This document shows, piece after piece, positions 2,690 through 45,809 of a DNA stretch of 64,000 nucleotides. Under the pieces are notes generated by a model, which worked only from the letters and a program-made list of their open reading frames with translations, did no database searches and was not told the DNA's origin. This DNA comes from Patescibacteria group bacterium (lineage in GTDB: Bacteria; Patescibacteriota; Minisyncoccia; Phycocordibacterales; WO2-35-19). Numbering within the stretch: position 1 is the first letter of the stretch; each line of letters starts with the position of its first letter. The stretch covers positions 2,517-66,516 of the forward strand of contig JBBTQO010000001.1 in NCBI GenBank assembly GCA_038065655.1, read 5' to 3'. The translations under genes and the position numbers were made by a program.

Positions 2690-3349
2690 ATGAGAAATAG
2701 AGATTATAAAATTTTTGCTCCAGATAGTTATTATCACGTATTTAATCGTGGAAATGCCAAAATGAAAATTTTTCTAGACCAGGAAGATTACAGATTTTTT
2801 CTTTGGCGTTTAAAAGAAAACTTATTTCCTGAACAAGTTGAAAAAAACAGAAGGGCACCTTCTGCAAATCTCCCAAAAGAAAGATATGTTCGCAAACTTC
2901 TACCGCCCAATTCGTTCAGTTTGATATGCTATTGTCTTATGCCGAATCATTTTCATCTTTTAATTAGGCAAAATTCTAAAATAAAAATAAGCGAACTAAT
3001 GCTTCGTGTTTGTGGTAGTTATGCAAAGTATTTTAATAAAAAATATGATCGTGTTGGGTCACTTTTTCAAGATCAATTCAAGGCTACTTTGGTAAACAAA
3101 AATAATTATTTGCTTTGGTTATCTGCGTATATACACGAAAATCCTCGAAAAGGAAAACTGGTAGATGAATTGGGGGATTGGGAATGGAGTAGTTACCTGG
3201 ATTATACGAGTCAAAAGCAAGGTGGTTTCTGTGAAAAGGAAATAATACTGGATCAATTAAACTCTAATGGTTACAAGGCATTCGTTAATCAGAATTTTGG
3301 TAAAAAAAGAGCTATAGAATTAAATGCTTTTCTTTTAGATTTTGAATAG
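2690..3349 (+). CDS. REP-associated tyrosine transposase (RAYT; IS200/IS605-like Y1 transposase, COG1943-type)
   Basis: 219 aa; N-terminal YHVFNRGN motif and HuH motif LMPNHFHLLI, typical of Y1 transposases; flanked on both sides by the same hairpin repeat. Confidence 0.8.
   Translation: MRNRDYKIFAPDSYYHVFNRGNAKMKIFLDQEDYRFFLWRLKENLFPEQVEKNRRAPSANLPKERYVRKLLPPNSFSLICYCLMPNHFHLLIRQNSKIKISELMLRVCGSYAKYFNKKYDRVGSLFQDQFKATLVNKNNYLLWLSAYIHENPRKGKLVDELGDWEWSSYLDYTSQKQGGFCEKEIILDQLNSNGYKAFVNQNFGKKRAIELNAFLLDFE
2848..2864. repeat. REP-like hairpin (family 1) copy inside the RAYT coding sequence: cagaagg-gca-ccttctg
   Basis: Perfect 7-bp stem with 3-nt loop; encodes in-frame residues (..NRRAPSANL..) of the RAYT itself. 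Confidence 0.6.
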
Positions 3350-9659: not shown

Positions 9660-9738
9660 CTCACCCTAAATCCCTCTCTTACCCTAATAGAGGGACTTTC
9701 GAAAACCCCTCTTAAGATAAGAGGGGGTAGAGGGAGTT
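9660..9738. repeat. ~80-bp MITE-like element, copy 1 (terminal inverted repeats aactcaccct / agggagtt; two internal hairpins)
   Basis: Hairpins ccctct...agaggg (9672-9694) and cccctctt...aagagggg (9706-9727) separated by ctttcgaaaac; lies immediately after the lepA stop; near-identical architecture at 14330-14408. Confidence 0.6.
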
Positions 9739-9865
9739 ATGCAATTGGGATATATATCAAGACCATACCGATTATCAAAAATATGGCTATGATAAACCAC
9801 AAAACTTTTATTATTTTTTGTGCTTTTGGATTCCAGAGCATGATATTATGTTAACATAAAAACAT

Positions 9866-10249
9866 ATGAGCTTGAAAGGTATAAAAAACAGAGAAAGTGG
9901 GAAGTGGAAAAGGTTAGGGATTTTTTTAATATTACTTTTAGTGTTTGGGTTGCTTCTAAATTCAGTCAGTAAAGTTTACAAAAAAAAGCAGGAAGCGGAA
10001 AAGATTTTGGTCCGTATGGAGGAACAAGCAACTGAACTAAAACAAAGAAATCAGTTTTTAAAAGAATCTTTGGAAAAGCTGGCGACTGAAGAAGGTGTTG
10101 AATTTGAAATTCGTAAAAAATTGAATGTGGCGGAAGTAGGGGAGAGTGTGGCGATTATTGTAGAAGAAGAACCAATCGCTTCTACCTCTAACCCCCAAAT
10201 CTCCTCTTGGCAAAAATTCAAAAACTTTTTTACTGAGCTATTTGAATAA
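9866..10249 (+). CDS. Small bitopic coiled-coil protein, possibly FtsL/DivIC-like cell-division protein
   Basis: 127 aa; N-terminal TM helix then a coiled-coil region (EQATELKQRNQFLKESLEKLATEE); assignment by architecture only. Confidence 0.35.
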   Translation: MSLKGIKNRESGKWKRLGIFLILLLVFGLLLNSVSKVYKKKQEAEKILVRMEEQATELKQRNQFLKESLEKLATEEGVEFEIRKKLNVAEVGESVAIIVEEEPIASTSNPQISSWQKFKNFFTELFE

Positions 10250-10315: not shown

Positions 10316-10321
10316 TGTTTG

Positions 10322-10392
10322 TGCGGGTAGGGGGAATCGAACCCCCGTCTCAACCTTGGGAAGGTCGCATCATACCACTAAACTATACCCGC
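10322..10392 (-). tRNA. tRNA-Gly (anticodon CCC)
   Basis: Minus-strand GCGGGTATAGTTTAGTGGTATGATGCGACCTTCCCAAGGTTGAGACGGGGGTTCGATTCCCCCTACCCGCA; acceptor stem GCGGGTA/TACCCGC; canonical T-arm GGTTCGATTCC; anticodon stem CGACC/GGTTG with loop TTCCCAA; CCA not encoded. Confidence 0.8.
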
Positions 10393-10659
10393 ATTGTTTT
10401 CTAAATAATTTTGGATTCTTTTATTTAAATACCCCCTACCAAAACCTGTTTTTAGTTGGAGCTCTCTTTTTCTGGAATCTGTTTTGTCCATACACGCTTC
10501 ATAGTAGACCAGTGTAATTCTATCAAATTTTTTTGTTGTTTGGACCTCACCTAATTTATGTTCCTTTAATCTATTGCGCAAATCACTTGTTGAGCCTATA
10601 TAAAAATTGTTTGCTCTTGTTTTCAAATTTTCACAATGTAGTACGTAAGTATAAAACAT
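10378..10659 (-). CDS. GIY-YIG family nuclease (small standalone Slx1/YhbQ-like or homing-endonuclease-like)
   Basis: ORF 10378-10755; likely start at MFYTYVLHC (10659). GIY-YIG signature: YTYVL..FYIGST.DL..RL.EH, conserved R and E (KRELQLK). C-terminal codons A-G-I-V-stop are read from the first 15 nt of the tRNA-Gly gene. Confidence 0.75.
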   Translation of the reverse strand: MFYTYVLHCENLKTRANNFYIGSTSDLRNRLKEHKLGEVQTTKKFDRITLVYYEACMDKTDSRKRELQLKTGFGRGYLNKRIQNYLENNAGIV

Positions 10660-10740
10660 ATTATTGCTTGCCCGCCAAAAGGTCTGCGAGACCATTTGGG
10701 CGGGTCCGTCTAAATGTTCGCAAAGCGAACTTTTGACGGA

Positions 10741-10774
10741 GGAAGGTCGCATCATACCACTAAACTATACCCGC
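10741..10774 (-). repeat. 34-nt duplicated copy of the tRNA-Gly 5' half (positions 1-34); direct repeat with 10359-10392
   Basis: Exact match GCGGGTATAGTTTAGTGGTATGATGCGACCTTCC then divergence. Supplies the last four codons (AGIV) and the stop of cysS. Lacks the T-arm and 3' half, so not a functional tRNA. Confidence 0.8.
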
Positions 10775-31255: not shown

Positions 31256-32815
31256 TTATAAAGGTAATTCGATAGTGAAAGTACTGCCCTTACCTACTCC
31301 GTCAGAGGAAACTTTAATGTCGCCCCCATGAGCTTCGGTCATCTTTTTTGCTATATAAAGTCCTAGGCCCGTGCCAATAACATTAACTTTGTTTGCATCT
31401 TTAGCTCGGGAGAATTTATTAAACAACTTATCTATTTCGCTCGGGTCAATACCAACGCCACTGTCTTTGACTGAAATTTTGACTTTATTTTCATCTTTAT
31501 AAACTGAAACAAATATATTACCTTTTGGTGTGTATTTCATTGCATTGTCTATGATATTGCTCACCACTTGCTTTATCTTACTTCGGTCGGCCTTGATTTT
31601 GATTTCTTCGGTTGGTATATCGGTACCAAAAGAAAGGCCGGTTTTATCTATGTTTGGTTTTATTTCGGTTATCACTTCTTTTACTAATTCATTCACATCA
31701 AAAACACTTTTTTCATAAACCATCCTTCCCTGCTCAATTCTTGAAATATTTAAAAAGTCGCCAACAATATTTATCAAATTTTGGCAGGATTTCATTATGG
31801 TATCTACCGAGTCTTTGGCCTTTTGAGGCAAGATTCCAAAGTCACCATCTAGAAGCATAGAAGAATAACCCTTGATGGCAGTGAGTGGTGCTCTAATCTG
31901 ATGGGTCGCTAACGACAAAAATTCCGATTTCAACTGGTCCAACTCCTTCAACTTCTCATTGGCCTCCCCCAACTCCCCCGCCAACTTTTCTAAGGATCCA
32001 GCATATTTTCTCCAAATATAGATAATAACTATTGTAAGGATTGTAATTATTAATGTTAGGATTACAATAAATATCAAGAATGGTTGCAGCGTCTGTCTTG
32101 TTATTGTAAAAAAATCATCAGCTTTAATATCTGTCGCTAAAATTGCAACCACATTCCCATATCTATCTTTTATCGGAGCATAACCAGTAATGACTGTACC
32201 GTATGCGTCTGTGTATAAATCTTTATTTGTTAGAGGACCATTATAAGCTTCCCAAGCTTCCGGAATGTCAATTGCTTCGGGATAGTCTTGCCCAGGCCAT
32301 TGAAGCTTATCTGGTCCGTCTGGCTCTATTTTACCGTCACGATTTACATCGATATATTTTGATGAGTTATCACTTGTGTTAGCGTATGGATCAACAGAAT
32401 CGGCATCGGCCACAAACTCCATTCTTGTCGGATCATCTTTTTTCTTTCGGAAAATATACATAAAGACAATATCTTTGTTGCTGTACTTAGCTTTATGCAA
32501 CTTACTTGTCACATGTGTCCATTCTGGTTTTTTCCAATCCTCTTCTGTTTGGAGTGCATCAAGATCTTCCGAATCGATGTTGGTTGCTGCTGTAATGGAT
32601 ATTGTTAAAATACGTTCCCTAAGATTTTCTGTTAAAAGAGTAACTGTGCGTTCATAAAGTATTCTGGATGCAAAAATAAAGATGATGATTAAAATAGATA
32701 TGATCACAATACCAGTCCAAATCGGATTTCTTACTTTTTTGGTTATTATGTTAAGCATAATAATTAATATTATACATCTAAAAGTGTATCTACTTCCTTT
32801 TTTTCCACATCCCAC
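31256..32815 (-). CDS. Sensor histidine kinase with periplasmic Cache-like sensor domain (orphan; no response regulator in window)
   Basis: 519 aa; two TM helices flank an extracytoplasmic domain; HisKA H-box SLATHQIRAPLTAIKGY; HATPase N, G1 (DSGVGI), G2 (GTGLGL) boxes. Confidence 0.8.
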   Translation of the reverse strand: MGCGKKGSRYTFRCIILIIMLNIITKKVRNPIWTGIVIISILIIIFIFASRILYERTVTLLTENLRERILTISITAATNIDSEDLDALQTEEDWKKPEWTHVTSKLHKAKYSNKDIVFMYIFRKKKDDPTRMEFVADADSVDPYANTSDNSSKYIDVNRDGKIEPDGPDKLQWPGQDYPEAIDIPEAWEAYNGPLTNKDLYTDAYGTVITGYAPIKDRYGNVVAILATDIKADDFFTITRQTLQPFLIFIVILTLIITILTIVIIYIWRKYAGSLEKLAGELGEANEKLKELDQLKSEFLSLATHQIRAPLTAIKGYSSMLLDGDFGILPQKAKDSVDTIMKSCQNLINIVGDFLNISRIEQGRMVYEKSVFDVNELVKEVITEIKPNIDKTGLSFGTDIPTEEIKIKADRSKIKQVVSNIIDNAMKYTPKGNIFVSVYKDENKVKISVKDSGVGIDPSEIDKLFNKFSRAKDANKVNVIGTGLGLYIAKKMTEAHGGDIKVSSDGVGKGSTFTIELPL

Positions 32816-34632
32816 AGGAATGGCGCAAGCCGAGGACCGAATCTTTTCCCTAATAACAACTGATACACATGTCGGAAAAAGTGGTGTTGGCGTAACATAT
32901 TATGTGTCTTGGTGGCATGTGGTTCTTTTGGTATGGTGTAGAGCAAAGAGCAAAATTTATCTAAAGAAATAGTAGATCTGCGATTAAGCAATATTCTTAG
33001 GGCACTAATTAATTTAATATCATCCGGTTTTAATGCGACGATATGTTCCTTATTCTTTTCTTTCAGAAGCTTATAAGTGTTACATTCTTCAATTTTTATG
33101 TAACGCGGACTGGTTCTTTTGGTTAGTCCCAAATCTAAATACATTGTTCCATTTATCCCGGTGAACAGATTTCGCTCATCAGATTTAAATGGTCTTAACC
33201 TTAATAATTTTTCCACATCTTTTTTTTGTATTTTTGTGAATTGTTGTAATTGCGATTTTTCTGTTTTGATTGATTTTTTCTGAAGGATAGGTTTAGCAAT
33301 CCATTCATATATATCGCGTTGTGGTAATGTTGGCATTGTAATTATCTTCCCATTAATACTAATATTGGAAGCCCCATAACCATATCCTCCGTATGGTTGT
33401 GTTCCTCGTTCTACGCCGGGTGCATGCAAGTGTGTGTTGCGAAGTAAGGAAAATTTATTATGAAGTATTTTCTCCTTATTAGATTGTATCAATCTAATAA
33501 TGTATTTGCTTGTTCCGTATAAAGTGACGTACATTGCATTATGTATATAATGGGGGTCTTCAAAATAATATTTGAGTTCAGGATCGTTTGTGTACTCTTG
33601 AATAAAAATGATCGGAGCGAATATCTCATTGAAATTACCCCCCTTTATTAGTGGTTTGCAGATAATAGTAGGTTCGACGATGGCATCATGCGTACGAATA
33701 ATTCCTGGAGTGAAAGGATCAATCCATCCACCATTTTCAACAAGAAAATTTTGTATCCTAACAAGATCCTTGGGGTCGCTGATTGGACCGATCCGACACG
33801 ACCTATCTTTGTAATGACCAACTCTAACATGATTTATTTTGTCGCGTAGTATTTGTAAAAAATTTTGCAAGACAGCTTTATGGACAAGAATAGCATTTGG
33901 TGCTGCACAATCTTGCCCTTGATTATAGAATTGGAGAGTAATAACTGCTTCAACTGCTTCAGAAATATTGGCATCTTTGCTTACCACTACCGGATTGTGA
34001 CCAGCTCCGTTTGTAATAAATAGGGTGCGTCTATCAAATACTAGACGCAACTGGTCAGAGTGAGCGGGAATGCCTGTAAAAATAACGATGTCAGTGACCG
34101 GTCTATTTTCTTTGGTTTTTGGATTTATACGAAGAGCGGACCTATCTTTTAAAAATTCGATTCTAGTTTTAGGAGAAACAACAATATTTGGAAATGATTT
34201 AGAAATATCTAAAAGAGCGAGGACCCCTGAGAAAAAATAGCGCATACTATTAGGAATACGAAAATGCACCTCGCTTGCCATCAGTGCTGGCACGACGACA
34301 AAACATGCGAAAGCATACAAGGGCTGATTTCTGGGCAGAAATGAAGTAACTGCACCAACGCGTAAACGAAAATATTTCTTATTTTCTTTAAGGTTTCTCA
34401 AAAGATCTAGTGTCCGAGCTACTTCATCTTGAACCACTTCGTAACTTTCGTATTTTAATAAAATGTCGGTTAGATCTTTCAAACGATCTTCAATAATATC
34501 TGCCAAGTTTTTGGCTTGCTGATCAATTTCGGAAAAATTGAGAGTCGTATACGGTATATATTCCGTATCTAAGACTGGGTATTTTACGACAGAGCGTCTA
34601 TTTAGTGGCATTGGTGTCTTATAGGTTCTCAT
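32770..34632 (-). CDS. Aldehyde dehydrogenase superfamily protein (LuxC-like acyl-CoA reductase-like) with ~200-aa C-terminal extension
   Basis: 620 aa; ALDH catalytic-Cys motif FYNQGQDCAAPNAILVHK; N- and C-terminal extensions without recognisable motifs. Confidence 0.5.
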   Translation of the reverse strand: MRTYKTPMPLNRRSVVKYPVLDTEYIPYTTLNFSEIDQQAKNLADIIEDRLKDLTDILLKYESYEVVQDEVARTLDLLRNLKENKKYFRLRVGAVTSFLPRNQPLYAFACFVVVPALMASEVHFRIPNSMRYFFSGVLALLDISKSFPNIVVSPKTRIEFLKDRSALRINPKTKENRPVTDIVIFTGIPAHSDQLRLVFDRRTLFITNGAGHNPVVVSKDANISEAVEAVITLQFYNQGQDCAAPNAILVHKAVLQNFLQILRDKINHVRVGHYKDRSCRIGPISDPKDLVRIQNFLVENGGWIDPFTPGIIRTHDAIVEPTIICKPLIKGGNFNEIFAPIIFIQEYTNDPELKYYFEDPHYIHNAMYVTLYGTSKYIIRLIQSNKEKILHNKFSLLRNTHLHAPGVERGTQPYGGYGYGASNISINGKIITMPTLPQRDIYEWIAKPILQKKSIKTEKSQLQQFTKIQKKDVEKLLRLRPFKSDERNLFTGINGTMYLDLGLTKRTSPRYIKIEECNTYKLLKEKNKEHIVALKPDDIKLISALRILLNRRSTISLDKFCSLLYTIPKEPHATKTHNMLRQHHFFRHVYQLLLGKRFGPRLAPFLWDVEKKEVDTLLDV

Positions 34633-35776: not shown

Positions 35777-38700
35777 TTAAAATTCTTTATAATTTGGGTC
35801 AACGGCAAAGTTGGCAATGACGGTTTTGTTACCAGACATATTGATGGTGCAAGAAATGTTTCTGCCGCATGATGTGCCATCTCCTCCCCAACCGGTAAAT
35901 ATTCTTCCACTCACTATCTGGGCAGTAAGTATAACATCATCACCTTCATCATAAGTCCAACAATTTGGAATATCGGGGATCCCAGTTGGATTACGGCTGA
36001 CTGTTCCCTGTCCTGATTTTACAATACACAGATTATAATCAGATCCTATTGGTGGGGCGACATTTACTGTGACACTGTCGGAAACCGGTCCGGGGTTGCA
36101 GGAGAGAGTATAAGTTTTTGATGCTGTTAAGTTGCCAGTAGATTGAGTGCCGGAAAGACCGGTCCAGCCAGTTGGAGAAACAGAACAAGAAGTAGCGTTA
36201 GTTGATGACCAAGTAATATTTGTAGCTGTATTATACGGAATATTTGTAGAATCAGCGCTTATGTTGGCAGTAGTTGAAACGGGCAGAGGACACTGAGCGC
36301 TGACACCATAAAACATAGCTGGGTTAGATTGGTTGTTGTATTCGGTCGCTATCCATTGTGCGGAGCGGATGCTGTTAGACAACCTAAACTCATCTAGTTT
36401 ACCGTTAAATGCTCTATCATTTAAACTCCTATTTCCGATCGTTAAAGTTGCAGATCCAGTTTGTAAGGTTCCAGATGGAGCGGTAACTTCCGTAACTGAT
36501 TGAGCCACACCATCTAGATAATAAATAGGATCATTTGAAATTGAACTCCCATTATAGGTAATAGCAATGTGATGCCAGGCCCCTGTACTTGGAGTAGGTA
36601 TTCTCCAAGCTGCAGCTCCAGACCAGCCAACCTGAAATTGCAATAAATTTGTTGAGTCAATAAATAACTGGTCTTTTAAGTTGCCATGTTCCCAAAACCT
36701 TCGGGCTGATGCATCAATAGCATTAACAAAAAACCAAGTTTCCCATGTTCTCTGTGCAGTAGCAGTGATAGTAGATGTAATCTTGTGCATATTGGTACTG
36801 CCACCAAAACTGGCTGAGCCGTCTATTTTCCCAGTAGTAGCTGACGCTCCGGAAATCGTCCCATTTTTATTATTGATAGTAGAATCAAGAGCAGATAATG
36901 TTGAGCCATTTGGATAATGATAAACTGCGGCATAATTACTATCCCAAGTCCCGGCAACATTTTGCTGATTTATTGCGCTGGGGTTACCATAATACATATA
37001 TATTTTTGTGTCCGCTGTACTGGAAAGACTTGGTACTTTTACCCAAGCAATGAGTTCGCCTGTCCCAGAAACATATTTTTCTATTTCGTGATCAAGTTTT
37101 GTTCCACTTGAGTTAGTAAATAAAATATCAAAACCATCTGGCCGAGCGTTGGCTTGCAATCCAGCATCAGAAGTTAGAGAAATCATAACAGGAAAGTTTG
37201 ATTGGGTAGCTGGGACTTTTGCGTCATCAATCTGGAAAATCTTACGATAACCCCAAATTCCACCAGTTGAATACCAAGGAGTCGCATCGGTACAAGAAGG
37301 ATTTACAACTCCTCCCCCAGCCGCACTCACAGTCACTGTTGTCCAAGCACTACAGTTATTCCCCTCATTTGATTCGGTGATAGTTCCAACCATTGAAGCA
37401 TTATTATCTGCGCATACTTGTACAGAATATGTTCCCGCCGAGGGGAATGTGTAAGAAGAAGATATGACAGTTCCAGAAGCACCCGCATTAAGAGCGCCTA
37501 GTTGAGTAACTGAAATTGTAGAAACTGTTCCAGTTCCACCTGCACCAGTTGCTACTCGGAAAAAATTGTTGAATGAAGCACCGGTAGCTGCTGTTCCGCT
37601 GTTTGTGATTGTAGATGAAAATGCTTGTGGTGTCCCGGCTGTTGCGGCAGTTGGAGTTATAACGCCTGGGGTTAGGTCTGGGGAGGAAGTATTTACACAA
37701 TCAATCTGACCTCCTATTGGATCACTCCATGAGTAAGGTGATGATGTGAGTTTTGTTTGAACTCCCCAGTAATATGATATACCAGCCGTTGTAAGAAAAT
37801 TTGTTTTTGCTGTCCCAACAAAATTATTATCCCATGCAGTAGATCCAGTAAGAGATGTCCAAGCTGGAAGTTCATACAACCTCGTATAAAAAGTACCCCA
37901 ACTGCTTATACCACCAACGCTTTGAGTTGGGGCTATCCATGAAAATGAACCGAGGTTGCCCGGACTTGGACAGGAACCTGAGCCATTGGTGGGTGGAGGT
38001 GGAATATTTATGATGACAGAATTAGATGCCGTATCTCCACTTGAACTCGTACAAGATAATGTATAAACCAGACTTGTGGTATTTAGAGGATAAGTATACG
38101 TATCTACAGTACCTCCAGATACACTTACTGGTGAACCATTCAATGTACAAGAAGATGCATTACCCACAGCACCCCATGTTATTTTATATGGAGCTTGACC
38201 ATAAGCCCAAAGTGGCCCATCACCAGTTTGGCTACCAAAAATAACCGATCTTCCGCCATCATTCCAAATAGTTGCCTTTACATCTACTCCGGTGGGAGGA
38301 GAGGGTGGTTCACAATTGTAAGTATCAGTATAAGAACCACCAGGTTTATAATACTCGCAATACACACCAGTTGGTTCTTGGAAAAGACATCCAGGTTGAG
38401 TACCTACAAATTCTGGAGCACAAGAAGAAGGAGATACAGTTCTTTTTGACCCAGTAATTTTCGTCTCAGAGCAAGAGTATGTCCTCTGGCACCACCCTCC
38501 ACCAATAGGTTTATCTTCTACTAAAGTTATTACACCCCCATTTGCGGTGGATTTACAACCCATAAGTTCTGGAAGACAATATGTTCCGCCACCAGTATCA
38601 GTAGTGCCTGCGGCACAATAATCCAGCGATGTATTATAGGTAGTCCCAACATTATGCTTAAAAGGATAATTTGTGCATATTACACCAATTGGTGGATATG

Positions 38701-38971
38701 TTGAAGGAGTACAAGAATATTCACTACCAGGAACGATTAAAGGACAAAATGATTGACAATTCGTCATATCATTAAACCATGCTTTACCTTCATAAACTGA
38801 AAATGGAGAATTCACATAAGCTGGCATATTTTCATAAGATGTGACGGTTACACCCTGAGAAGCGTTACATTGAGCGGCTGCATCTACACTAGAAGTCGGC
38901 AGAAAAACAAAAAATAAAAGTATAAAAATGAATAGAAAGTGATTTAAATTTATTTTTTTTAGGTAATTCAT
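35777..38971 (-). CDS. Giant secreted cell-surface protein with Cys-rich N-terminal region, Ig-like/Thr-rich repeats, DUF2341-like and LamG/concanavalin-like domains
   Basis: 1064 aa; signal peptide; DUF2341-like segment (GGIWGYRKIFQIDDAKVPATQSNFPVMISL...KIYMYYGN); LamG-like segment (..WHHIAITYNGSS...LDGV...GKLDEFRLSN). Confidence 0.6.
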   Translation of the reverse strand: MNYLKKINLNHFLFIFILLFFVFLPTSSVDAAAQCNASQGVTVTSYENMPAYVNSPFSVYEGKAWFNDMTNCQSFCPLIVPGSEYSCTPSTYPPIGVICTNYPFKHNVGTTYNTSLDYCAAGTTDTGGGTYCLPELMGCKSTANGGVITLVEDKPIGGGWCQRTYSCSETKITGSKRTVSPSSCAPEFVGTQPGCLFQEPTGVYCEYYKPGGSYTDTYNCEPPSPPTGVDVKATIWNDGGRSVIFGSQTGDGPLWAYGQAPYKITWGAVGNASSCTLNGSPVSVSGGTVDTYTYPLNTTSLVYTLSCTSSSGDTASNSVIINIPPPPTNGSGSCPSPGNLGSFSWIAPTQSVGGISSWGTFYTRLYELPAWTSLTGSTAWDNNFVGTAKTNFLTTAGISYYWGVQTKLTSSPYSWSDPIGGQIDCVNTSSPDLTPGVITPTAATAGTPQAFSSTITNSGTAATGASFNNFFRVATGAGGTGTVSTISVTQLGALNAGASGTVISSSYTFPSAGTYSVQVCADNNASMVGTITESNEGNNCSAWTTVTVSAAGGGVVNPSCTDATPWYSTGGIWGYRKIFQIDDAKVPATQSNFPVMISLTSDAGLQANARPDGFDILFTNSSGTKLDHEIEKYVSGTGELIAWVKVPSLSSTADTKIYMYYGNPSAINQQNVAGTWDSNYAAVYHYPNGSTLSALDSTINNKNGTISGASATTGKIDGSASFGGSTNMHKITSTITATAQRTWETWFFVNAIDASARRFWEHGNLKDQLFIDSTNLLQFQVGWSGAAAWRIPTPSTGAWHHIAITYNGSSISNDPIYYLDGVAQSVTEVTAPSGTLQTGSATLTIGNRSLNDRAFNGKLDEFRLSNSIRSAQWIATEYNNQSNPAMFYGVSAQCPLPVSTTANISADSTNIPYNTATNITWSSTNATSCSVSPTGWTGLSGTQSTGNLTASKTYTLSCNPGPVSDSVTVNVAPPIGSDYNLCIVKSGQGTVSRNPTGIPDIPNCWTYDEGDDVILTAQIVSGRIFTGWGGDGTSCGRNISCTINMSGNKTVIANFAVDPNYKEF

Positions 38972-38978
38972 ATAAATT

Positions 38979-39458
38979 TTATTTTTGGCTAAAGTGAACT
39001 TGAACTTCTACTTTTTTGCTTTGAGAATTTTCAGTTATAAATATATTTAATGTTGTATTATTTTTTTGTCCTGTGAGAGACATTACTTTGGGAACTACCT
39101 CCATTACAAATGGATTCCAGCCACCTGTCTCCATATATGTCCTGAATGTGTCCACATTCTCATTAAAAGAAAAAGGACTATCCCAAACCAAAGTATATTC
39201 TAAATAGCCATTTATTTCCCTCTGAAATTCTTGCGTTGGAGTAGCGCCATTTACAGGCAAAGGAAAATCACTCGGCACAAGCTCTTTTTTAGATTCAGTG
39301 GTATTTAGAGAATACACTGGCACTTGGGGCTTTTGATTTTTATATTTATTTAACCAAAAAAGTGATAAAAATCCCACAACTAATATCATGAAAATAACAA
39401 TTATCCAAACAAACTTTCTTTTTTTTTGGGTCTCTTCCATTGTATTTGAAAATAACAC
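38979..39458 (-). CDS. Hypothetical membrane-anchored protein
   Basis: 159 aa; one N-terminal TM helix; no motif. Confidence 0.35.
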   Translation of the reverse strand: MLFSNTMEETQKKRKFVWIIVIFMILVVGFLSLFWLNKYKNQKPQVPVYSLNTTESKKELVPSDFPLPVNGATPTQEFQREINGYLEYTLVWDSPFSFNENVDTFRTYMETGGWNPFVMEVVPKVMSLTGQKNNTTLNIFITENSQSKKVEVQVHFSQK

Positions 39459-39545
39459 TAAATAATTGTCTATATTATATCATTTTTTCATTATGCAAAT
39501 ACTAATCTGTTTATAAAAACTGTGCATAAGGTTTTTAAAGTTTAG

Positions 39546-39586
39546 GTATGAAAAAAGCCGTCCCGCGCGAACGCGAAACGGCTTTG
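39546..39586 (-). terminator. GC-rich rho-independent terminator of the GC-rich foreign ORF
   Basis: Minus strand: AAAGCCGtttcgcgttcgcgcgggaCGGCTTT followed by TTTTTC; a second hairpin gcgaccCGGAggtcgc lies at 39595-39610. Confidence 0.6.
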
Positions 39587-39615
39587 ATTTGTTGCGACCC
39601 GGAGGTCGCTGTGTG

Positions 39616-40458
39616 CTATTTAGAGAAGAGGCGCCTGTACTGGGCTTGGAGGGAAGCATTTGCGTCAACCTCCCCATTTGGTCCAATCACTGGGACTTCC
39701 CCACCGAGCAATGGAACAACGCACGACACCCCATGTTTGTCCGACAGGTGAACGAATAGGGGTTCCCCGACCAGAAAAGCACTCATAGGAACTTCAATCT
39801 TTTCGACTGAGTAATCCCCGGAATAGACCTTCTGAAAGGTTGCTTCGTTCCCACTGTTATCCTGAACGAGTTGGAATACGACAGCTTGCGTGGGTCCATT
39901 TCCACCAATCTCGACGGATAGTTTGTTGTCGCTTGAGCTCTTACTCAACACGACAGCCCCCAATTCAGCAAACACAGGGAGTTCGTCTGGTACTCCCACT
40001 ACCAGTAGCGGAACCTCCGAGTGTAGAACCACACTGGAACAGGTTTTACTTGTTCTACTGGTGAGGTTTTCTGCCACCACCATATAGAGACCGGGCTGGA
40101 CCCCATTGAGCCAGAGACCATGGAAACTGTAGAGATGCCGTTGCGCTTGGAATCTCCCGGCAAACCCTGAAGACACCATATTCCCGAGTTGGAGTTTTCC
40201 TGTGCCATTCCCCACCTGCATCATGTACCACAGCCCGTCGTATTTGATGGCGTGGTACAACTGAAAAGTTGCCTCATATTCACTGACACAGGTCGGACTG
40301 ACCTGGATGACCCCGAGATCAATCCCATCATTAGTCTTGGTCAACGTCAGAGCGACGCTGGCCACCTGTTGTTCTGGCACGACCTGTGCCGGAATCACCA
40401 TCATGCTCATGCTCGACAAGAGCACGAGCAAAAACATTGAAAAGTACTTGCTGAGCAT
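39616..40458 (-). CDS. Secreted hypothetical protein encoded on a GC-rich (~50% GC) foreign cassette
   Basis: 280 aa; N-terminal signal peptide (MFLLVLLSSMSMMVIPA); codon usage and GC content strikingly different from the flanks (~35%); no recognisable family. Confidence 0.5.
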   Translation of the reverse strand: MLSKYFSMFLLVLLSSMSMMVIPAQVVPEQQVASVALTLTKTNDGIDLGVIQVSPTCVSEYEATFQLYHAIKYDGLWYMMQVGNGTGKLQLGNMVSSGFAGRFQAQRHLYSFHGLWLNGVQPGLYMVVAENLTSRTSKTCSSVVLHSEVPLLVVGVPDELPVFAELGAVVLSKSSSDNKLSVEIGGNGPTQAVVFQLVQDNSGNEATFQKVYSGDYSVEKIEVPMSAFLVGEPLFVHLSDKHGVSCVVPLLGGEVPVIGPNGEVDANASLQAQYRRLFSK

Positions 40459-40569: not shown

Positions 40570-42369
40570 TTACATAAAACCACTCATTTGGAGGTCCCAC
40601 AACTTTTTATAAAGTCCACTTTCTTTGTTTGAAAGTTCATCATGAGTTCCGTCTTCAACGATTGAACCTTTGTCCATAGATATTATACGGTCCATTTTTT
40701 TGATGGTAGAAAGTCTGTGTGCGATGACGATGGTGGTGCAGTTTTCCATTAAGATTTTCAAAGCATCTTGAATGAGCGATTCGGAATAGGAATCTAAACT
40801 TGAAGTAGCTTCATCAAAAATTAGAATAGGAGCCTTTTTGAGGATTGCTCTGGCGATGGCTATCCGCTGGCGCTCTCCACCAGAAAGCTTAATTCCCCGC
40901 TCACCGACATACGTCTCATATTTCAAAGGTAAATTTTCGATAAATTCATCACAATGAGCGAGTCTGGAAGCCTCTTTGACTTCTTCGTCAGAAACATTTC
41001 GGCAACCATAACGGATATTTTCCAGTAGTGTTCGATGAAAAAGGACAGGATCTTGTGGCACGAAACTTATGTTTTCCCTTAAACTGTCTTGGGTGATAGT
41101 GCGGATATTTTGACCATCAATAATGATAGAGCCAGAGGTCAAATCATATAGGCGCATTATAAGTCTTACAAAAGTCGTTTTGCCTGAACCTGAGTGTCCC
41201 ACCAGCGCCACCTTTTCTCCACTCTTTATTGTTAGATTTATATTGTTTAATGTTTTATTTCCTTGATTGAATTCAAACGACACATTATCAAAAACTATTT
41301 CTCCCTTGGTTACAATTAATTTTTTTGCATTGGGCAAATCTTCTATATCGTGTTTGGTAATTAATATGTCAACCATTTCTTTGGAATCGGCCAAACTTTG
41401 AAAGATACTGCGAATAATTTTGTTTAGTCCCCAAAGTTGTTGAGATAGGCCGATTATGTAGGTTTGAGCCAATACAAAGGTTCCTATAGTGATTAATCCC
41501 CTTTCCCAATATTTTATAGCGTAATAAAACACGAAGAACTCTACCAAAAAAATGAGCAATACTTGTATTCCATCAACTAATTCGGCTAATCGCCAAGAAA
41601 ATAGGGTTTTTCTAGCCTGTTCGTTAGAAATTTTTTGGAAACCCTTAGATTCGTGTTTGTGTCCTGTAAAAAAGGATATGGCGTTGTTATTTGTGATTGA
41701 ATCTGCCAAATAACCAGTAGTGTGGGAATCAGCTTCAGCAGACAATTTGTCATATTTTAATTTCCATGTTGAAAATGAAATACTAAATACTGATATGATA
41801 AATACCCATGAAATCATAATAATAGAAACTATTGGGGCGATGAAATACATTATCCATATTGAACCGACGACGGTTATAACAAGCGGTATGAGATTAAAAG
41901 CGAGACTATCGGCTAGAGATTCAAATGCACGACTGAATCGGTTTACTTTTTGGACCAACCCACCACTAAAATTGTTGGCAAAAAAAGTGTGAGAATGTCC
42001 CATCATATAATCAAAAGAGTTTTGCTTCAGTTTTGCCATTACCCGCGTTTCCATCATGTCAAAGAGAAACATTCCGACTCTAAAAAAGACCCAGTTAATA
42101 GCGTGGAAAATTAATATAAAAGTTACGATTTTAATAAGGGCAAGAGCGGTTTCGCTTGGGCTCACAGATTTGCTTATAACGTCAAAAAAATCTTTATAAT
42201 ATAAAGGGATAAATAAATTAATTAAATGGGCAACAAAAAATAAAAAATATGCACTAAAAAACAAGCCTTTGACTGACCTTACTCCTTTCCAAAACTGACT
42301 CATTATTTGGCCGACAGTTGTTTCTTTGGTTGGTTTGCTTTTGGTTTCTTCTCTACCAATGGTGTCCAT
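40570..42369 (-). CDS. ABC transporter, fused permease/ATPase (type I exporter, MsbA/multidrug-like)
   Basis: 599 aa; 6 TM helices; Walker A GHSGSGKTT, signature LSGGERQRIAIARA, Walker B ILIFDEATS. Confidence 0.85.
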   Translation of the reverse strand: MDTIGREETKSKPTKETTVGQIMSQFWKGVRSVKGLFFSAYFLFFVAHLINLFIPLYYKDFFDVISKSVSPSETALALIKIVTFILIFHAINWVFFRVGMFLFDMMETRVMAKLKQNSFDYMMGHSHTFFANNFSGGLVQKVNRFSRAFESLADSLAFNLIPLVITVVGSIWIMYFIAPIVSIIMISWVFIISVFSISFSTWKLKYDKLSAEADSHTTGYLADSITNNNAISFFTGHKHESKGFQKISNEQARKTLFSWRLAELVDGIQVLLIFLVEFFVFYYAIKYWERGLITIGTFVLAQTYIIGLSQQLWGLNKIIRSIFQSLADSKEMVDILITKHDIEDLPNAKKLIVTKGEIVFDNVSFEFNQGNKTLNNINLTIKSGEKVALVGHSGSGKTTFVRLIMRLYDLTSGSIIIDGQNIRTITQDSLRENISFVPQDPVLFHRTLLENIRYGCRNVSDEEVKEASRLAHCDEFIENLPLKYETYVGERGIKLSGGERQRIAIARAILKKAPILIFDEATSSLDSYSESLIQDALKILMENCTTIVIAHRLSTIKKMDRIISMDKGSIVEDGTHDELSNKESGLYKKLWDLQMSGFM

Positions 42370-42466
42370 TATAGATATCTTAACATTATTGGATTAAAAC
42401 TTGAAGATTATTTGACAAAATGGTATAAATATATTAACTTAATAATCAGAAAGGTTGTAAAAACAA

Positions 42467-43477
42467 ATGAAAAAGAAAAAAGAGTCATTAGTCTTGGGGC
42501 GTATGTTGCAAAAAATCGCGTCTCGCATTGGGGCAACTATCATTTTGGAACCTGAATGGGGTATTGTTGGCCAAATTACCTTCAAGAGTGGCCGCTTTTC
42601 CTATTTCAGGTATAACACTGTGGATTTGAATCCAATGGGAGCTTCGGAAATTGCAAAGGATAAAGACTATGCCAACTTCTTTATGAAGCGCATGGGCTAC
42701 CCCATTGTTCCGGGCAGTAAGACATTTTTTTCGGATTCATGGGGTAAGGCTATCGGAGCATCTCATCGCAACACCCTTGCTGCTTATCGGTATGCTCAAA
42801 CGCTGGGCCTGCCGGTTATTGTAAAGCCAAACAGCGGTAGTCAAGGAAGAGGGGTCACTCTCGTTCATAACAAACGCGAATTCTACCGAGCAATGCGCAC
42901 AGTCTTTGAGATTGATCGCGTCGCTTTGGTCCAACAGCCTGTGCATGGCAAGGATTATAGAATAGTCGTTTTAGACGAAAGAGTGATTTCAGCTTACGAG
43001 CGGATACCACTCAATGTTATTGGCAACGGGAGGTCAACGATAAGTAATTTGCTCAAAAAGAAGCAGCAAGAATTCGTTGCTTCAAGCCGTGACACCAATA
43101 TCAAGAAGAATGACCCTCGCATAACTGAGAAGCTGAAGCATCAAGGGTTAAATCTTCAGTCAGTTTTGGCTCAAGGGGAGAGGGTTTTTCTTCTTGATAA
43201 TGCCAATCTGTCTGCTGGTGGAGATTCGGCAGATGTCACAGCAAACATGCACCCAACCTTTGGTAAGATTGCCATAAAGCTGACCAAAGATATGGGGCTT
43301 CGTTTGTGTGGGGTTGATCTTATGATTGATGGCGACATCAGCCAAAAATCATCACCTTTTTGGGTCCTTGAGATTAATTCTGCACCTGGTCTTGATCACT
43401 ATTCAAGGTCCGGTAAGGCGCAGGAGAAAATTGTTGAGGATTTATATCTCGAAGTACTGAAAAGTATGGAGAGATAA
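42467..43477 (+). CDS. Standalone ATP-grasp ligase resembling the ATP-grasp (G) domain of cyanophycin synthetase CphA
   Basis: 336 aa; motifs IVKPNSGSQGRGV, DYRIVVLDERVISAYERIPLNVIGNGRSTI, DNANLSAGGDSADVT, VLEINSAPG. From memory these align with the CphA ATP-grasp core (..VIGDGRSTI.., ..ANLSTGG.., ..EVNAAPG..); also RimK/CofF-like. Confidence 0.65.
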   Translation: MKKKKESLVLGRMLQKIASRIGATIILEPEWGIVGQITFKSGRFSYFRYNTVDLNPMGASEIAKDKDYANFFMKRMGYPIVPGSKTFFSDSWGKAIGASHRNTLAAYRYAQTLGLPVIVKPNSGSQGRGVTLVHNKREFYRAMRTVFEIDRVALVQQPVHGKDYRIVVLDERVISAYERIPLNVIGNGRSTISNLLKKKQQEFVASSRDTNIKKNDPRITEKLKHQGLNLQSVLAQGERVFLLDNANLSAGGDSADVTANMHPTFGKIAIKLTKDMGLRLCGVDLMIDGDISQKSSPFWVLEINSAPGLDHYSRSGKAQEKIVEDLYLEVLKSMER

Positions 43478-43520
43478 TGCTGGGGTATCCTACCCCAGCA
43501 TTTTTTAATAAACCTTTATT

Positions 43521-43979
43521 ATGAAAACCAAATCTTCTCTTCAAAAAATAAAACAGATAATATCAAAGTATGACTCATTTATTCTTTATAAACCACTATC
43601 TGATGAAGTTGATTATAATAATTTATCTTTTCCCTTGAAATTTTTTTCAGAAAATATTATGTTGCCAAGCAATAAAAATAGCAACCCGCTCTTATGGGCA
43701 ACTAAGTGTATTTCTAAATATAAAAATAGTAATCCTTGTGTCTTAGTCCCCGGCACTCGGTTTGATATTTATGGAACCCGTCACGGAAGAGGAAAGGGTT
43801 GGTATGACCGCTTTCTTTCTAAAATACCAAAAAAATGGTTTCGAGTAGGGATTACTCATGCATCAAAATTTTCGTTATTTCCAATTTCGTTTCAAGAATG
43901 GGATGAACAGGTTGATTTGGTTATAACCCATGATGGTTTTCACTGGATGGTTTATGAGACTTCTGCTCGGAATAAGTAA
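43521..43979 (+). CDS. 5-formyltetrahydrofolate cyclo-ligase (MTHFS) family protein (short)
   Basis: 152 aa; motif VLVPGTRFDIYGTRHGRGKGWYDRFL matches the 5-FCL family PG..FD..G.R.G.G.GYYDR core. Confidence 0.6.
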   Translation: MKTKSSLQKIKQIISKYDSFILYKPLSDEVDYNNLSFPLKFFSENIMLPSNKNSNPLLWATKCISKYKNSNPCVLVPGTRFDIYGTRHGRGKGWYDRFLSKIPKKWFRVGITHASKFSLFPISFQEWDEQVDLVITHDGFHWMVYETSARNK

Positions 43980-44658
43980 ATATCTTTGAGTAAATATCTG
44001 TCTTTGGTGAAAGTGCCAAACTTGTCTTTTTAAATGTTTTTTTATTTGTAAATTCTATGGGAGCATTTTTGATTATAACAATAGGAATTTGTTCAATTCC
44101 TTCCCCCATTACAAGCACTGCGCTAGTTGCTAAGGCATCAGCAATATTGCTTTGAGTTAGACGACTTTTCCGCCCAAATAAATCTTTTTTCCCGATGTAA
44201 CTCCTCAATGGATTAAAACCAATATATGCAATCGGTCTGCCAACGGTACCAACCCTAAGTGGTATACTTTTTGTGTCTGTGATGATAACGCCAATATGTT
44301 TGAGAGAAAAATGTTTCAGCAAATTTTTTTGTATTTGCTCGGCAACTTTAAAAGGATTTTTTGGTAAAAGAATTACATTATTTTTTGCATTTGATTCATC
44401 GATTCCCGCATTGATGCACCACTCCCCTTCAGTTAGGGTAAGCAAAGCCCAAGGGGTCTCAATTATTTTTTGAGAATTTTTCTTTATTAATTTTTCTTTA
44501 TCCTTTATTTTTCCAGTTCTTCCTTGAGACAGGGCGATAATTTTTGAGGTAATAACAATGATATCGTTATCATTAAGAGAGTTAATTTGCTTATGTAAAA
44601 AATTTATTAAATTTTCGTTTTCCTTAAAGATTGGAGTTTTGATAGCCAGTATTTGCAT
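43921..44658 (-). CDS. CofE-like F420-0:gamma-glutamyl ligase family protein
   Basis: 245 aa; motifs VITSKIIALSQGR and ADALATSAVLVMGEGIEQIPIVII characteristic of the CofE/FbiB-N gamma-glutamyl ligase fold; 3' end overlaps the convergent 5-FCL gene by 59 nt. Confidence 0.6.
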   Translation of the reverse strand: MQILAIKTPIFKENENLINFLHKQINSLNDNDIIVITSKIIALSQGRTGKIKDKEKLIKKNSQKIIETPWALLTLTEGEWCINAGIDESNAKNNVILLPKNPFKVAEQIQKNLLKHFSLKHIGVIITDTKSIPLRVGTVGRPIAYIGFNPLRSYIGKKDLFGRKSRLTQSNIADALATSAVLVMGEGIEQIPIVIIKNAPIEFTNKKTFKKTSLALSPKTDIYSKIFTYSEQKSHKPSSENHHGL

Positions 44659-44670
44659 AAAAGAATTTAA

Positions 44671-45738
44671 TTACATTCCCTCTTCTTTTAATTTTTGGAC
44701 CGCTTCGTTTTTGGATCTTTCGACCATAAATTTTACAGCCTCGTTCATATTTATATTTTGGATTTTTATGTTCGGTCTTTTGTCTTTAAAAACTCGGTAT
44801 ATTTCATCAGCAAAAGCTTGACCGATTGTCGGTACGCGGTCATAATCCATTATGATTATTTTAAATTTTTCAAGACCTGATAATATTCTGCGGGCTTGTG
44901 ATCTAGATATATGAATTCCGCCCATTGTGTATAAACGCACCCTTATTTCAGTCTTATCAAAACCATAATCGCCATCTTTCTCCATATCGGTATGTTCTTT
45001 AAAAATATCATTCAAGTGGCGGGTGTTGCTTGTATCAATGCGAAAAGTCACCCTGGTTCCCTGTTTTTGCCCTTTGGTTTTTTTAATAAAAACATCTTTT
45101 ATTTTATTGTTTACCGTTAACTCATAACCATAACTGTCCAATATAAATTCGTCCCCCGCTTTTGAGGTAAAAAATATACCCTCTCCGGAATGAAGCTTGG
45201 GGGCGGTTGTTGTTTTACCCTTCAATAGATCTTGGATTGCTTCCATTTCTGAATTTAATCTCCTTTTCTCCATAATATTTTTGAAAACTCCTACGCCAAA
45301 ATCATCAACTATAAAAAATAAAGTGTTTTTGTTTAAACCAACAGAGAATTTTATTTTTTCAGATTTTGAATGTTCAATGGCGTTATTAAACATCTCGGAA
45401 AAAGCGTATTCAAAAATACTTTTTATGTTTTCAGGAAATTTAGCCAGATTTTGAAAATTGTGTTCAATGTCGTCAAAAATTTTGTGTTCCTCTAGTTGCT
45501 TGTTTATCAATGTTTTTGAATAACTCGCTGGGATAAGACTGGGATTTTTTTGCAGATACTCCGCTGTGACATAAATAGCTGATCTGGTTGAGCCAATCTT
45601 CACAAGTTTTTTTTCGGTTACAAGTTTGGATATAAGTTTTGAGGCGTATTGCCTAGATACACCAAAATCACCAATAAAATCTATTGTTTTTATAGTTCCC
45701 TTTTTACTAGCCAGATTCAATATTTTTTGGGTGGTAAG
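44671..45738 (-). CDS. Fusion regulator: winged HTH + GHKL/histidine-kinase-like ATPase (RsbW-like) + STAS-like (DUF4325-like) domain
   Basis: Start chosen at MLTTQ. N-terminal wHTH (..FGVSRQYASKLISKLV..). HATPase N-box NAIEHS, G1 DDFGVG, G2 GEGIFF. C-terminal ~90 aa resembles STAS/DUF4325. Located immediately downstream of dnaJ. Confidence 0.55.
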   Translation of the reverse strand, partial: LTTQKILNLASKKGTIKTIDFIGDFGVSRQYASKLISKLVTEKKLVKIGSTRSAIYVTAEYLQKNPSLIPASYSKTLINKQLEEHKIFDDIEHNFQNLAKFPENIKSIFEYAFSEMFNNAIEHSKSEKIKFSVGLNKNTLFFIVDDFGVGVFKNIMEKRRLNSEMEAIQDLLKGKTTTAPKLHSGEGIFFTSKAGDEFILDSYGYELTVNNKIKDVFIKKTKGQKQGTRVTFRIDTSNTRHLNDIFKEHTDMEKDGDYGFDKTEIRVRLYTMGGIHISRSQARRILSGLEKFKIIIMDYDRVPTIGQAFADEIYRVFKDKRPNIKIQNINMNEAVKFMVERSKNEAVQKLKEEGM

Positions 45739-45809
45739 CATATGTAAACACAATTGTAAACCTATGGTTAGTGATTGTCAACCAATTGTCAACTAACTGT
45801 TAAATACTC

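Follow-up and report, generated by a model that had tools for sequence, protein, structure and literature searches.

Three adjacent genes in a 64,000-nucleotide (nt) stretch of contig JBBTQO010000001.1 from a Patescibacteria group bacterium, referred to as the window, probably form a module for the salvage of folate and the building of its tail, of a type characteristic of Patescibacteria, which scavenge folate and do not synthesize it. Positions are those of the window, and the genes belong to a five-gene block at 40570-45753. They encode a stand-alone ATP-grasp amide ligase of the CphA-G-domain/GshF/Ngg type (42467-43477, + strand, 336 amino acids (aa)), a short protein of the MTHFS/5-formyl-tetrahydrofolate (5-formyl-THF) cyclo-ligase family (43521-43979, + strand, 152 aa, PF01812), and a CofE-family (COG1478/PF01996) gamma-glutamate ligase of the FolC2 type (43921-44658, − strand, 245 aa). 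The two ligases are the core of the module, and the MTHFS-like protein is an accessory to it. The reading is built on the family assignments of these proteins, their conserved linkage, and the folate and thymidylate genes that surround them in related genomes.

The block is completed by an ATP-binding cassette (ABC) exporter gene and a regulator gene. An earlier note on this DNA suggested a dedicated ligase pathway with its own exporter and possibly its own regulator. The conservation and linkage of the three ligase-type genes support the first part of that proposal, and the exporter and the regulator fall outside it. The positions and orientations that it gave for the five genes agree with the list of open reading frames (ORFs) and with the profile searches. 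The ABC and ATP-grasp genes are divergent, as it described, with 97 nt between their start codons, and the MTHFS-like and CofE-like genes, which run toward each other, share 59 nt (43921-43979).

Patescibacteria, or the candidate phyla radiation (CPR), account for a large share of bacterial diversity and do not make most of their cofactors. Near-identical database proteins bear names that place the organism in the Patescibacteria, of the Paceibacteria/Parcubacteria type. The locus and its relatives point to folate machinery that has been missing from the picture of CPR, namely a FolC2-type ligase with a conserved ATP-grasp enzyme as its partner, an MTHFS of minimal size, and proteins that are candidates for importers.

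Linkage of the Genes across Patescibacteria

Conservation of the linkage was analyzed in two sets of loci. The CofE-like-anchored set was derived from an alignment of CofE-like homologues (A1) and comprises 80 loci from species-representative genomes, 75 of which could be evaluated for adjacency of the ATP-grasp gene. The reciprocal set, anchored on the ATP-grasp protein (alignment A2), comprises 80 metagenome loci, of which 79 were counted with neighbors taken within five genes. Neighbors were determined by tblastn and neighbor clustering, and FolD, dCTP deaminase, PurL, and PurQ were confirmed by Pfam.

In 43 of the 75 evaluable loci, the gene that directly follows the CofE-like gene is that of the ATP-grasp protein. 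Half of the adjacent pairs are co-directional, with the genes overlapping or abutting, and half are convergent. Among the co-directional pairs, which occur in more distant relatives (approximately 45-55% identity; Nomurabacteria, Paceibacterota), 17 of 21 have their genes spaced by −29 to +4 nt, which implies an operon. In the clade of the window itself the pair is convergent, and the 3' ends are −34 to +77 nt apart or, in seven loci, approximately 420-475 nt apart. The MTHFS-like gene fills this larger gap in at least six of the seven loci. In total, it is found between or beside the pair in 9 of the 80 genome loci and in 9 of the 79 metagenome loci, in 7 of which it directly follows the ATP-grasp gene. 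In the reciprocal set, a CofE-like gene is present within five genes of the ATP-grasp gene in 31 of the 79 loci. Both orientations of the pair occur, and the adjacency has outlasted inversion, which is good evidence of functional coupling.

The closest relative is locus L161, where the CofE-like and ATP-grasp proteins are 86% and 94% identical to those of the window, respectively. Its gene order is grpE, dnaK, DUF559, dnaJ, CofE-like, ATP-grasp on the opposite strand, and ABC, and it contains neither the regulator nor the MTHFS-like gene.

These results indicate that the association of the CofE-like, ATP-grasp, and MTHFS-like genes, all three of an ATP/GTP-dependent ligase type, is genuine, that it is conserved across Patescibacteria, and that it reflects a functional link. 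A comparison of gene neighborhoods had been proposed in the earlier note; it shows that the genes do co-occur in related genomes and that their linkage, in part including the MTHFS-like gene, is conserved.

One related genome has the complete convergent CofE-like/ATP-grasp pair twice on the same contig, as seen at loci L001 and L006, both on contig JBBUFS010000001.1, and also at loci L081 and L091, both on one 109-kb Hainich contig. The two pairs are roughly 10-30 kb apart, and each of the two proteins is approximately 80% identical between the copies. That the pair was duplicated as a whole points to two specificities or two chain-length classes.

Folate and Thymidylate Context

In the co-directional loci, a string of genes recurs in the order NusG, L11, VUT transporter (PF02592), in some cases a RibD_C/DHFR-like reductase, CofE-like, ATP-grasp, dCMP deaminase, MazG-like, DHFR, and ThyA, where DHFR and ThyA are on the opposite strand. 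Among the 80 CofE-like-anchored loci, DHFR is a neighbor in 25, dCMP deaminase in 23, a MazG-like protein in 19, the RibD_C/DHFR-like reductase in 11, and ThyA in 8. The corresponding counts around the ATP-grasp gene in the 79 metagenome loci are 10 for DHFR, 6 for the RibD_C/DHFR-like reductase, 5 for FolD (directly upstream in 4), 4 for ThyA, 5 for dCTP deaminase, 11 for PurL, and 4 for PurQ. Where the ATP-grasp gene is away from the CofE-like gene, it is still found in such loci beside MTHFS-like, FolD, DHFR, ThyA, dCTP deaminase, or PurL/PurQ genes. FolP and FolK were not seen among the conserved neighbors in either set of loci.

The conserved neighborhood is a folate and thymidylate island. 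Because the pair stands beside DHFR, ThyA, FolD, dCMP deaminase, and the DHFR-like reductase in related genomes, the cofactor on which it acts is most likely scavenged folate. The idea in the earlier note that the ligases polyglutamylate or amino-acylate a cofactor was of the right kind, and the FolC2 type of the CofE-like protein together with the folate neighbors gives that cofactor a probable identity. The note presumed an organism that lacks F420/folate biosynthesis; the further premise of an organism with no use for folate is not supported, in view of these neighbors and of the CPR survey of 2025. In that survey, folate-using enzymes are almost universally kept, with folA in 54.8%, glyA in 81.3%, and folD in 79.7% of 4581 CPR genomes, and an E. 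coli ΔfolA strain is complemented by DHFRs from CPR (PMC11974145). The same survey found no known (ECF-type) folate transporter and makes no reference to folC or to polyglutamylation (PMC11974145).

Two types of membrane protein were observed upstream of the CofE-like gene. A VUT-family protein (PF02592, the YhhQ/preQ0-transporter family) is encoded directly upstream in 34 of the 80 loci, for example at L023:~9300-10000, L065:9358-10020, and L042:3194-3901. In eight loci, its position is taken by a 235-aa multi-pass membrane protein with no Pfam match, which is often followed by the RibD_C/DHFR-like reductase. The VUT-family and 235-aa proteins are candidates for the CPR folate importer, and the RibD_C/DHFR-like protein is a candidate folate reductase.

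Annotation of the other recurrent neighbors, which are TrpRS/TyrRS, TatD, a thioredoxin-reductase-like protein, TspO, a sigma factor, and Fic/RhuM, added nothing informative.

CofE-Like Gamma-Glutamate Ligase

The CofE-like label given in the earlier note was confirmed. The protein matches PF01996 with 156.5 bits (cut-off 25), and its top match in the PDB is A. fulgidus CofE (E = 1e-28). Its 2520 homologues are essentially all from Patescibacteria. The top NCBIfam model is TIGR04132, "putative folate metabolism gamma-glutamate ligase", at 191.4 bits, which is below the trusted cut-off of 350. The CofE equivalog models give 151-153 bits, and for TIGR01916 the value of 151.1 is also below the cut-off of 180.65. 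TIGR04132 ranked first as well in all 29 of the 29 family members tested, and these too score below the trusted cut-offs.

The motifs for the nucleotide, metal, and glutamate (NAGIDESN, ITDT, and MGEG) are kept in the protein. In the structures of A. fulgidus CofE, the deazaflavin is held by G153-C155 and stacked by R234 (PMC10861534). The G153-C155 (GRC) segment is replaced in the Patescibacterial family by S-x-P, in which S131 and P133 are invariant. The profile alignment to CofE ends at CofE residue 224, leaving R234 with no aligned counterpart, and the last 40 profile positions of the family, with conserved F203, P218, D221, and I222, cannot be aligned with CofE. Conserved catalytic motifs combined with changed deazaflavin contacts are the pattern that would be expected of the same chemistry on a different head group. 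The predicted activity of the CofE-like protein is most likely that of a FolC2-type folyl-gamma-glutamate ligase.

The precedent is found in Chlamydiae, which have no folC and in which the COG1478 member CT611 (folC2), encoded in their folate operon, complements an E. coli folC mutant (PMC1971073; PMC4161248). As in the Patescibacterial loci, CT611 is a CofE-family protein in an organism without F420 and clusters with DHFR and 5-fcl (PMC1971073; PMC4161248). The chlamydial operon serves de novo folate synthesis, whereas the Patescibacterial setting is one of salvage without folB, folK, and folP genes, and the ATP-grasp partner present here is not among the chlamydial folC2 cluster genes. At the level of loci, as distinct from whole genomes, cofC, cofD, cofG, and cofH were not among the conserved neighbor clusters of the 160 loci.

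The window protein carries an 18-aa C-terminal extension that is missing from most homologues (93% of the query is covered); the L161 protein ends in ...DIYAKIY. The 59-nt overlap exists because the CofE-like ORF has lost its ancestral stop codon and extends 18 codons into the MTHFS-like gene.

In locus L063 (2909-4326), two tandem CofE-like genes encode proteins that share 45% and 42% identity with that of the window, and no ATP-grasp gene adjoins them.

ATP-Grasp Ligase

The ATP-grasp protein is similar to the cyanophycin synthetase CphA at the level of a domain, and in this sense the CphA-like label of the earlier note is correct. The match to TIGR02068 (cyanophycin synthetase) reaches 163 bits, covers model positions 231-470 only, and is below the cut-off of 850; the C-terminal ATP-grasp of GshAB gives 155 bits and Ngg gives 106 bits. 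The scores are far lower for the RimK family (TIGR00768, 65 bits; cut-off 143), CofF (TIGR04443, 27.6 bits; cut-off 300), MptN (NF040720, 48 bits; cut-off 350), and the Ddl models (at best 40-51 bits; cut-offs 243-246), all of which are missed, and the protein thus does not score as a member of the D-Ala-D-Ala ligase or RimK families. Its PDB matches are GshAB (3ln7), CphA1 (7lg5/7wac), and CphA2 (8fxh/7ta5), with E values of 1e-25 to 1e-28 (about 1e-26 for 7lg5 and 7wac). The closest relatives in sequence are thus the G domain of CphA1/CphA2, GshF, and N-acetylglutaminylglutamine synthetase (106-163 bits).

K120, D284, E302, and N304 are invariant across sequences of 45-76% identity, which indicates that the enzyme is catalytically intact. 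The protein is strongly conserved, with more than 120 cluster representatives at 71% identity or higher. Profile searches found neither the N nor the M domain of CphA in it, nor a domain of the GshA or GNAT type. A full CphA1 consists of N, G, and Mur-ligase-like M domains and has about 870 aa, whereas the similarity of the 336-aa window protein is to the G domain only. Because the extra domains of CphA, GshF, and Ngg are missing, the names "cyanophycin synthetase" and "D-Ala-D-Ala ligase-like" used in public databases are domain-level over-calls, almost certainly so in the case of "cyanophycin synthetase".

GshF, the CphA G domain, and Ngg all act on an N-blocked amino acid or peptide, whose alpha-carboxylate they convert into an acyl-phosphate before they add an amino acid; their substrates are gamma-Glu-Cys, the cyanophycin C-terminus, and N-acetyl-Gln, respectively. 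Pteroyl-glutamate and folyl-gamma-Glu(n) are substrates of precisely this type. It is possible, as a tentative proposal, that the ATP-grasp enzyme adds a further residue to the folate tail, for which alpha-glutamate would be the most probable choice.

In the F420 system, CofE makes the gamma-linked tail and CofF adds a terminal alpha-glutamate (PMC8498797). The CofE/CofF pair of Euryarchaeota resembles the present one in combining a PF01996 gamma-glutamyl ligase with an ATP-grasp amino-acid ligase, which act there on one cofactor tail. It differs in that the cofactor is F420, whereas here the context is that of folate, the ATP-grasp enzyme is of the CphA/GshF/Ngg branch, and the CofE chromophore contacts are not conserved. 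To our knowledge, the E. coli gene for an activity forming alpha-linked folylpolyglutamates has never been identified. Alpha linkages in the folate tails of E. coli, attributed in PMC1971073 to Ferone, Singer and Hunt (1986), would make this activity a precedent for the addition of alpha-glutamate to folate tails by an enzyme other than FolC.

MTHFS-Family Protein and the Adjoining Hairpin

The 152-aa protein matches PF01812 with 46.4 bits against a cut-off of 27, in keeping with the MTHFS-like label and the profile check proposed in the earlier note. The match is limited to profile positions 121-185 of 186, and the TIGR02727 score of 55 bits misses the cut-off of 84.9. The sequence GxRxGxGxGWYDRFLS is invariant in 36 of 36 MTHFS-like sequences and fits the active-site motif GxRxGxGxG[YW]YD; the human enzyme has YY where this family has WY. 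The AlphaFold2 model has a predicted local distance difference test (pLDDT) score of 88.8, and the top eight PDB matches found by Foldseek are all MTHFS. The protein shares the Pfam family, the fold, and the motif with the MTHFS of M. pneumoniae (1SBQ/1U3F) and human (3HY3) and is, as judged by these features, a genuine but minimal member of the family.

A G+C-rich hairpin with a 12-bp stem followed by a T-run, a likely terminator, is located at 43476-43502 (+ strand) right after the stop codon of the ATP-grasp gene. The stem, AATGCTGGGG...CCCCAGCATT, is shared with L161:2680-2707, and the loop differs. In L161, where the MTHFS-like gene is absent, the CofE-like and ATP-grasp genes converge with 26 nt between them; the stem occupies this gap and is predicted to be a bidirectional terminator. 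In the window, the hairpin is separated from the 3' end of the CofE-like gene by the MTHFS-like gene. Since this gene lies directly 3' of a strong hairpin and T-run, its expression in the window probably depends on read-through.

Exporter and Regulator Genes

The ABC gene (40570-42369, − strand, 599 aa) encodes an MsbA-like exporter half-transporter with ABC_membrane and ABC_tran domains. Its NCBIfam matches are all far below the cut-offs; CphA_assoc_ABC (NF052233) gives 324.7 against 880, and the MsbA and HepA models score equally. Full-length relatives were found nearby only in L161, L010 (51%), and L036 (39%), the remaining matches being generic nucleotide-binding domains, and the divergent ABC/ATP-grasp arrangement is retained only in L161. 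In each set, 5 of 80 loci have an ABC gene no farther than four to five genes away, which does not exceed a rough estimate of chance. The exporter was rejected as a module member on these grounds, and its place in the pathway of the earlier note was not supported.

The regulator gene (44671-45753, − strand, 360 aa) encodes a putative winged helix-turn-helix (wHTH)/GHKL-ATPase/DUF4325 (STAS-like) protein and lies outside the conserved module; beyond it on the same strand are dnaJ, dnaK, and grpE. Of the three domains proposed earlier, DUF4325 is above its cut-off (35.6 bits; cut-off 23), whereas the HATPase_c_2, HATPase_c, and wHTH models are all below theirs; the GHKL N-box EMFNNAIEH and G1 box DDFGVG can be read in the sequence. 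The protein looks like a partner-switching pair of the RsbW/RsbV type that has been fused and carries a DNA-binding head.

In 163 related loci (1.92 Mb), the regulator gave no tblastn match and nothing meaningful with a hidden Markov model of its family, and in L161 dnaJ abuts the CofE-like gene. Its absence from the related loci and from the closest relative indicates that its insertion between dnaJ and the CofE-like gene is specific to this lineage. Stand-alone proteins of approximately 345 aa make up the family, which is widespread, with 2172 representatives at 50% clustering, nearly all of 330-360 aa, 637 of which have E ≤ 1e-30; no solved relative was found. A role as a defense or mobile gene was rejected, with only marginal helix-turn-helix matches in PADLOC and no tblastn match in plasmid or phage collections.

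The role of controller assigned to this protein in the earlier note was likewise not supported beyond a possible local link. The distance between the stop codon of the regulator gene and the start of the CofE-like gene is 12 nt, and this gap together with a promoter-like site at 45781-45753 indicates that the two genes are probably co-transcribed in this genome, as a local link only. The annotated TTG start at 45753 overlaps this near-consensus site, and the true start is therefore probably the ATG four codons downstream.

Proposed Pathway

In the proposed pathway, folate monoglutamate would be imported, in related genomes probably by the VUT-family or the 235-aa membrane protein; there is no candidate importer beside the module in the window. 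The FolC2-type enzyme of the CofE family would add one or more gamma-glutamates to the imported molecule, in place of the canonical Mur-ligase-type FolC. Gamma-glutamylation would trap the folate in the cell and improve its fit to folate enzymes. The ATP-grasp enzyme might then turn a free carboxylate in the tail into an acyl-phosphate, and so activate it for ligation of another amino acid, most probably an alpha-linked L-glutamate, which would be the folate counterpart of the division of labor between CofE and CofF in F420 and of MptN in methanopterin. The small MTHFS-family protein would turn 5-formyl-THF, which arises as a by-product of SHMT and is stable, into 5,10-methenyl-THF, which could go back to the pool through FolD.

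A bolder version of this pathway is a speculative possibility. The ATP-grasp enzyme may confer a tail chemistry that FolC does not make, such as an alpha-glutamate or a non-glutamate cap after gamma-glutamylation, giving a CPR-specific folate that is retained by the cell and resistant to the gamma-glutamyl hydrolase of the host, with the VUT-family and 235-aa proteins as the missing importers.

Several points weigh against the salvage and tail-building pathway or limit its reach. We infer what the enzymes act on, which linkages they form, and how the steps follow one another, and the roles of all three proteins are drawn from sequence and genomic context. Approximately 40% of the CofE-like loci have no ATP-grasp gene nearby, and many ATP-grasp loci, such as L087, L088, L105, and L150, have no folate gene within 8 kb. 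DHFR, ThyA, FolD, and transporter genes were not found in the annotated parts of the window, where the annotated ORFs are housekeeping genes only (Pfam annotation of most ORFs; approximately 49.4-53.1 kb and 57.5-64 kb are partly annotated), and DHFR, ThyA, VUT, dCMP deaminase, RibD_C, and MazG-like proteins had no tblastn match anywhere in the 64-kb window. Because the CofE-like protein scores below the trusted cut-offs of both TIGR04132 and the CofE models, it represents a third, distinct Patescibacterial clade. The ATP-grasp protein is not an orthologue of CofF, MptN, or RimK (28-65 bits), and the alpha-glutamate proposal therefore follows from analogy and the chemistry of the nearest relatives; its AlphaFold2 model (pLDDT 37.5, from 25 homologues of 71-94% identity) is unusable. 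The N-terminal helical region of the MTHFS-like protein is approximately 25 residues shorter than that of the small M. pneumoniae enzyme, and the phosphate-binding K10 and R14 of human MTHFS lie in this region.

The FolC2 idea, the link between folC2 and 5-fcl, and MTHFS itself were already known, and the exporter and regulator are ordinary neighbors. The statement in the earlier note that no such combination had been characterized is too broad, as the legend to Fig. 5A of a 2007 paper already draws the clustering of folC2 with 5-fcl (PMC1971073); only the ATP-grasp partner seems to be undescribed. A literature search found no paper linking an ATP-grasp enzyme to FolC2 or to CPR folate. What appears to be new is the Patescibacteria-wide pairing of a FolC2-type ligase with a dedicated ATP-grasp enzyme and its placement in a salvage operon with uncharacterized transporters. 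Should the ATP-grasp enzyme modify the tail of folate, ligases acting on this tail would be of three kinds, and the enzyme would be for folate what CofF and MptN are for their cofactors. The assignment, if true, would also correct the widespread mis-annotation as "cyanophycin synthetase" or "F420 ligase" in thousands of genomes.

Alternative Explanations

The ATP-grasp enzyme could be a ligase with no relation to the folate tail, such as an Ngg/GshB-like synthetase of a dipeptide or osmolyte or a RimK-like glutamylase of protein C-termini, kept near one-carbon and nucleotide genes only by shared regulation or inherited synteny. This explanation, which is unlikely and still deserves attention, would account for the many ATP-grasp loci without a folate gene within 8 kb and for the frequent neighbors TrpRS/TyrRS and PurL, and it agrees with the products of the closest characterized relatives, which are glutathione, cyanophycin, and N-acetylglutaminylglutamine. 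However, it does not readily explain why the adjacency to the CofE-like gene outlasts inversion, why the co-directional genes overlap or abut, or why the ATP-grasp gene has independent links to MTHFS-like, FolD, DHFR, and ThyA genes in differing arrangements, and no GshA, CphA M domain, or GNAT partner accompanies it. A different division of roles within folate metabolism is rather improbable. Here the ATP-grasp enzyme would resemble dihydrofolate synthase, placing the first glutamate onto scavenged pteroate or dihydropteroate or rebuilding broken-down folate, and the CofE-like enzyme would then extend the tail. The folate context is identical for both divisions of labor, ATP-grasp enzymes activate many carboxylates, and, with an uncharacterized transporter and a DHFR-like reductase directly upstream in related genomes, the imported species may be one other than folate. 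Against this stand the absence of FolP and FolK from the conserved neighbors, the use of amino-acid alpha-carboxylates, and not of aryl carboxylates, by the nearest ATP-grasp relatives, and the fact that Chlamydia FolC2 alone complemented E. coli folC (PMC1971073).

It is very unlikely that the pair builds the tail of a cofactor other than folate, which could be a deazaflavin or some other compound taken from a host. PF01996 membership, CofE as the sole solved relative, and the known pairing of CofE with an alpha-glutamate ATP-grasp enzyme for F420 (PMC8498797) are consistent with it, as is the life of some Patescibacteria on methanogens (PMC10936435). The conserved neighbors, however, are DHFR, ThyA, FolD, and MTHFS-like genes with no F420 gene among them, the FolC2-type model outscores the CofE models, and the chromophore contacts of CofE are not conserved. 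The least probable explanation, with a chance close to negligible, is that all five genes form one pathway in which a polyglutamylated or amino-acylated product is exported by the ABC protein under the control of the wHTH-GHKL-STAS regulator. The contiguity of the block, the divergent ABC/ATP-grasp arrangement kept in L161, and the 12 nt from the regulator stop codon to the CofE-like start speak for it. It is largely refuted by synteny, since the regulator family is absent from the 163 related loci and L161 yet widespread elsewhere, and ABC genes are as scarce around the module as the rough estimate of chance suggests, with full-length relatives in three other loci only.

Other Features of the Window

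Beyond the ABC gene, three genes on the − strand (35777-40458) are preceded by a perfect TTGACA-16-TATAAT promoter-like site (40506-40479). Two of them encode proteins of 280 aa and 159 aa with hydrophobic N-termini and no Pfam or PADLOC match, and the third encodes a 1064-aa surface-type protein with CARDB, DUF2341, and LamG-like domains. Rfam and tRNA scans of the window gave a single match, tRNA-Gly(CCC) at 10321-10392, which is overlapped by a small ORF with a GIY-YIG domain (10378-10755, − strand). An ORF of the IS200-like Y1 transposase family (PF01797) is located at 2690-3349 (+ strand). Finally, a 620-aa ORF (32770-34632, − strand) has an unusual architecture, in that the match to the aldehyde dehydrogenase family is confined to residues 180-353, and it overlaps the start of the adjoining histidine kinase gene (31256-32815).

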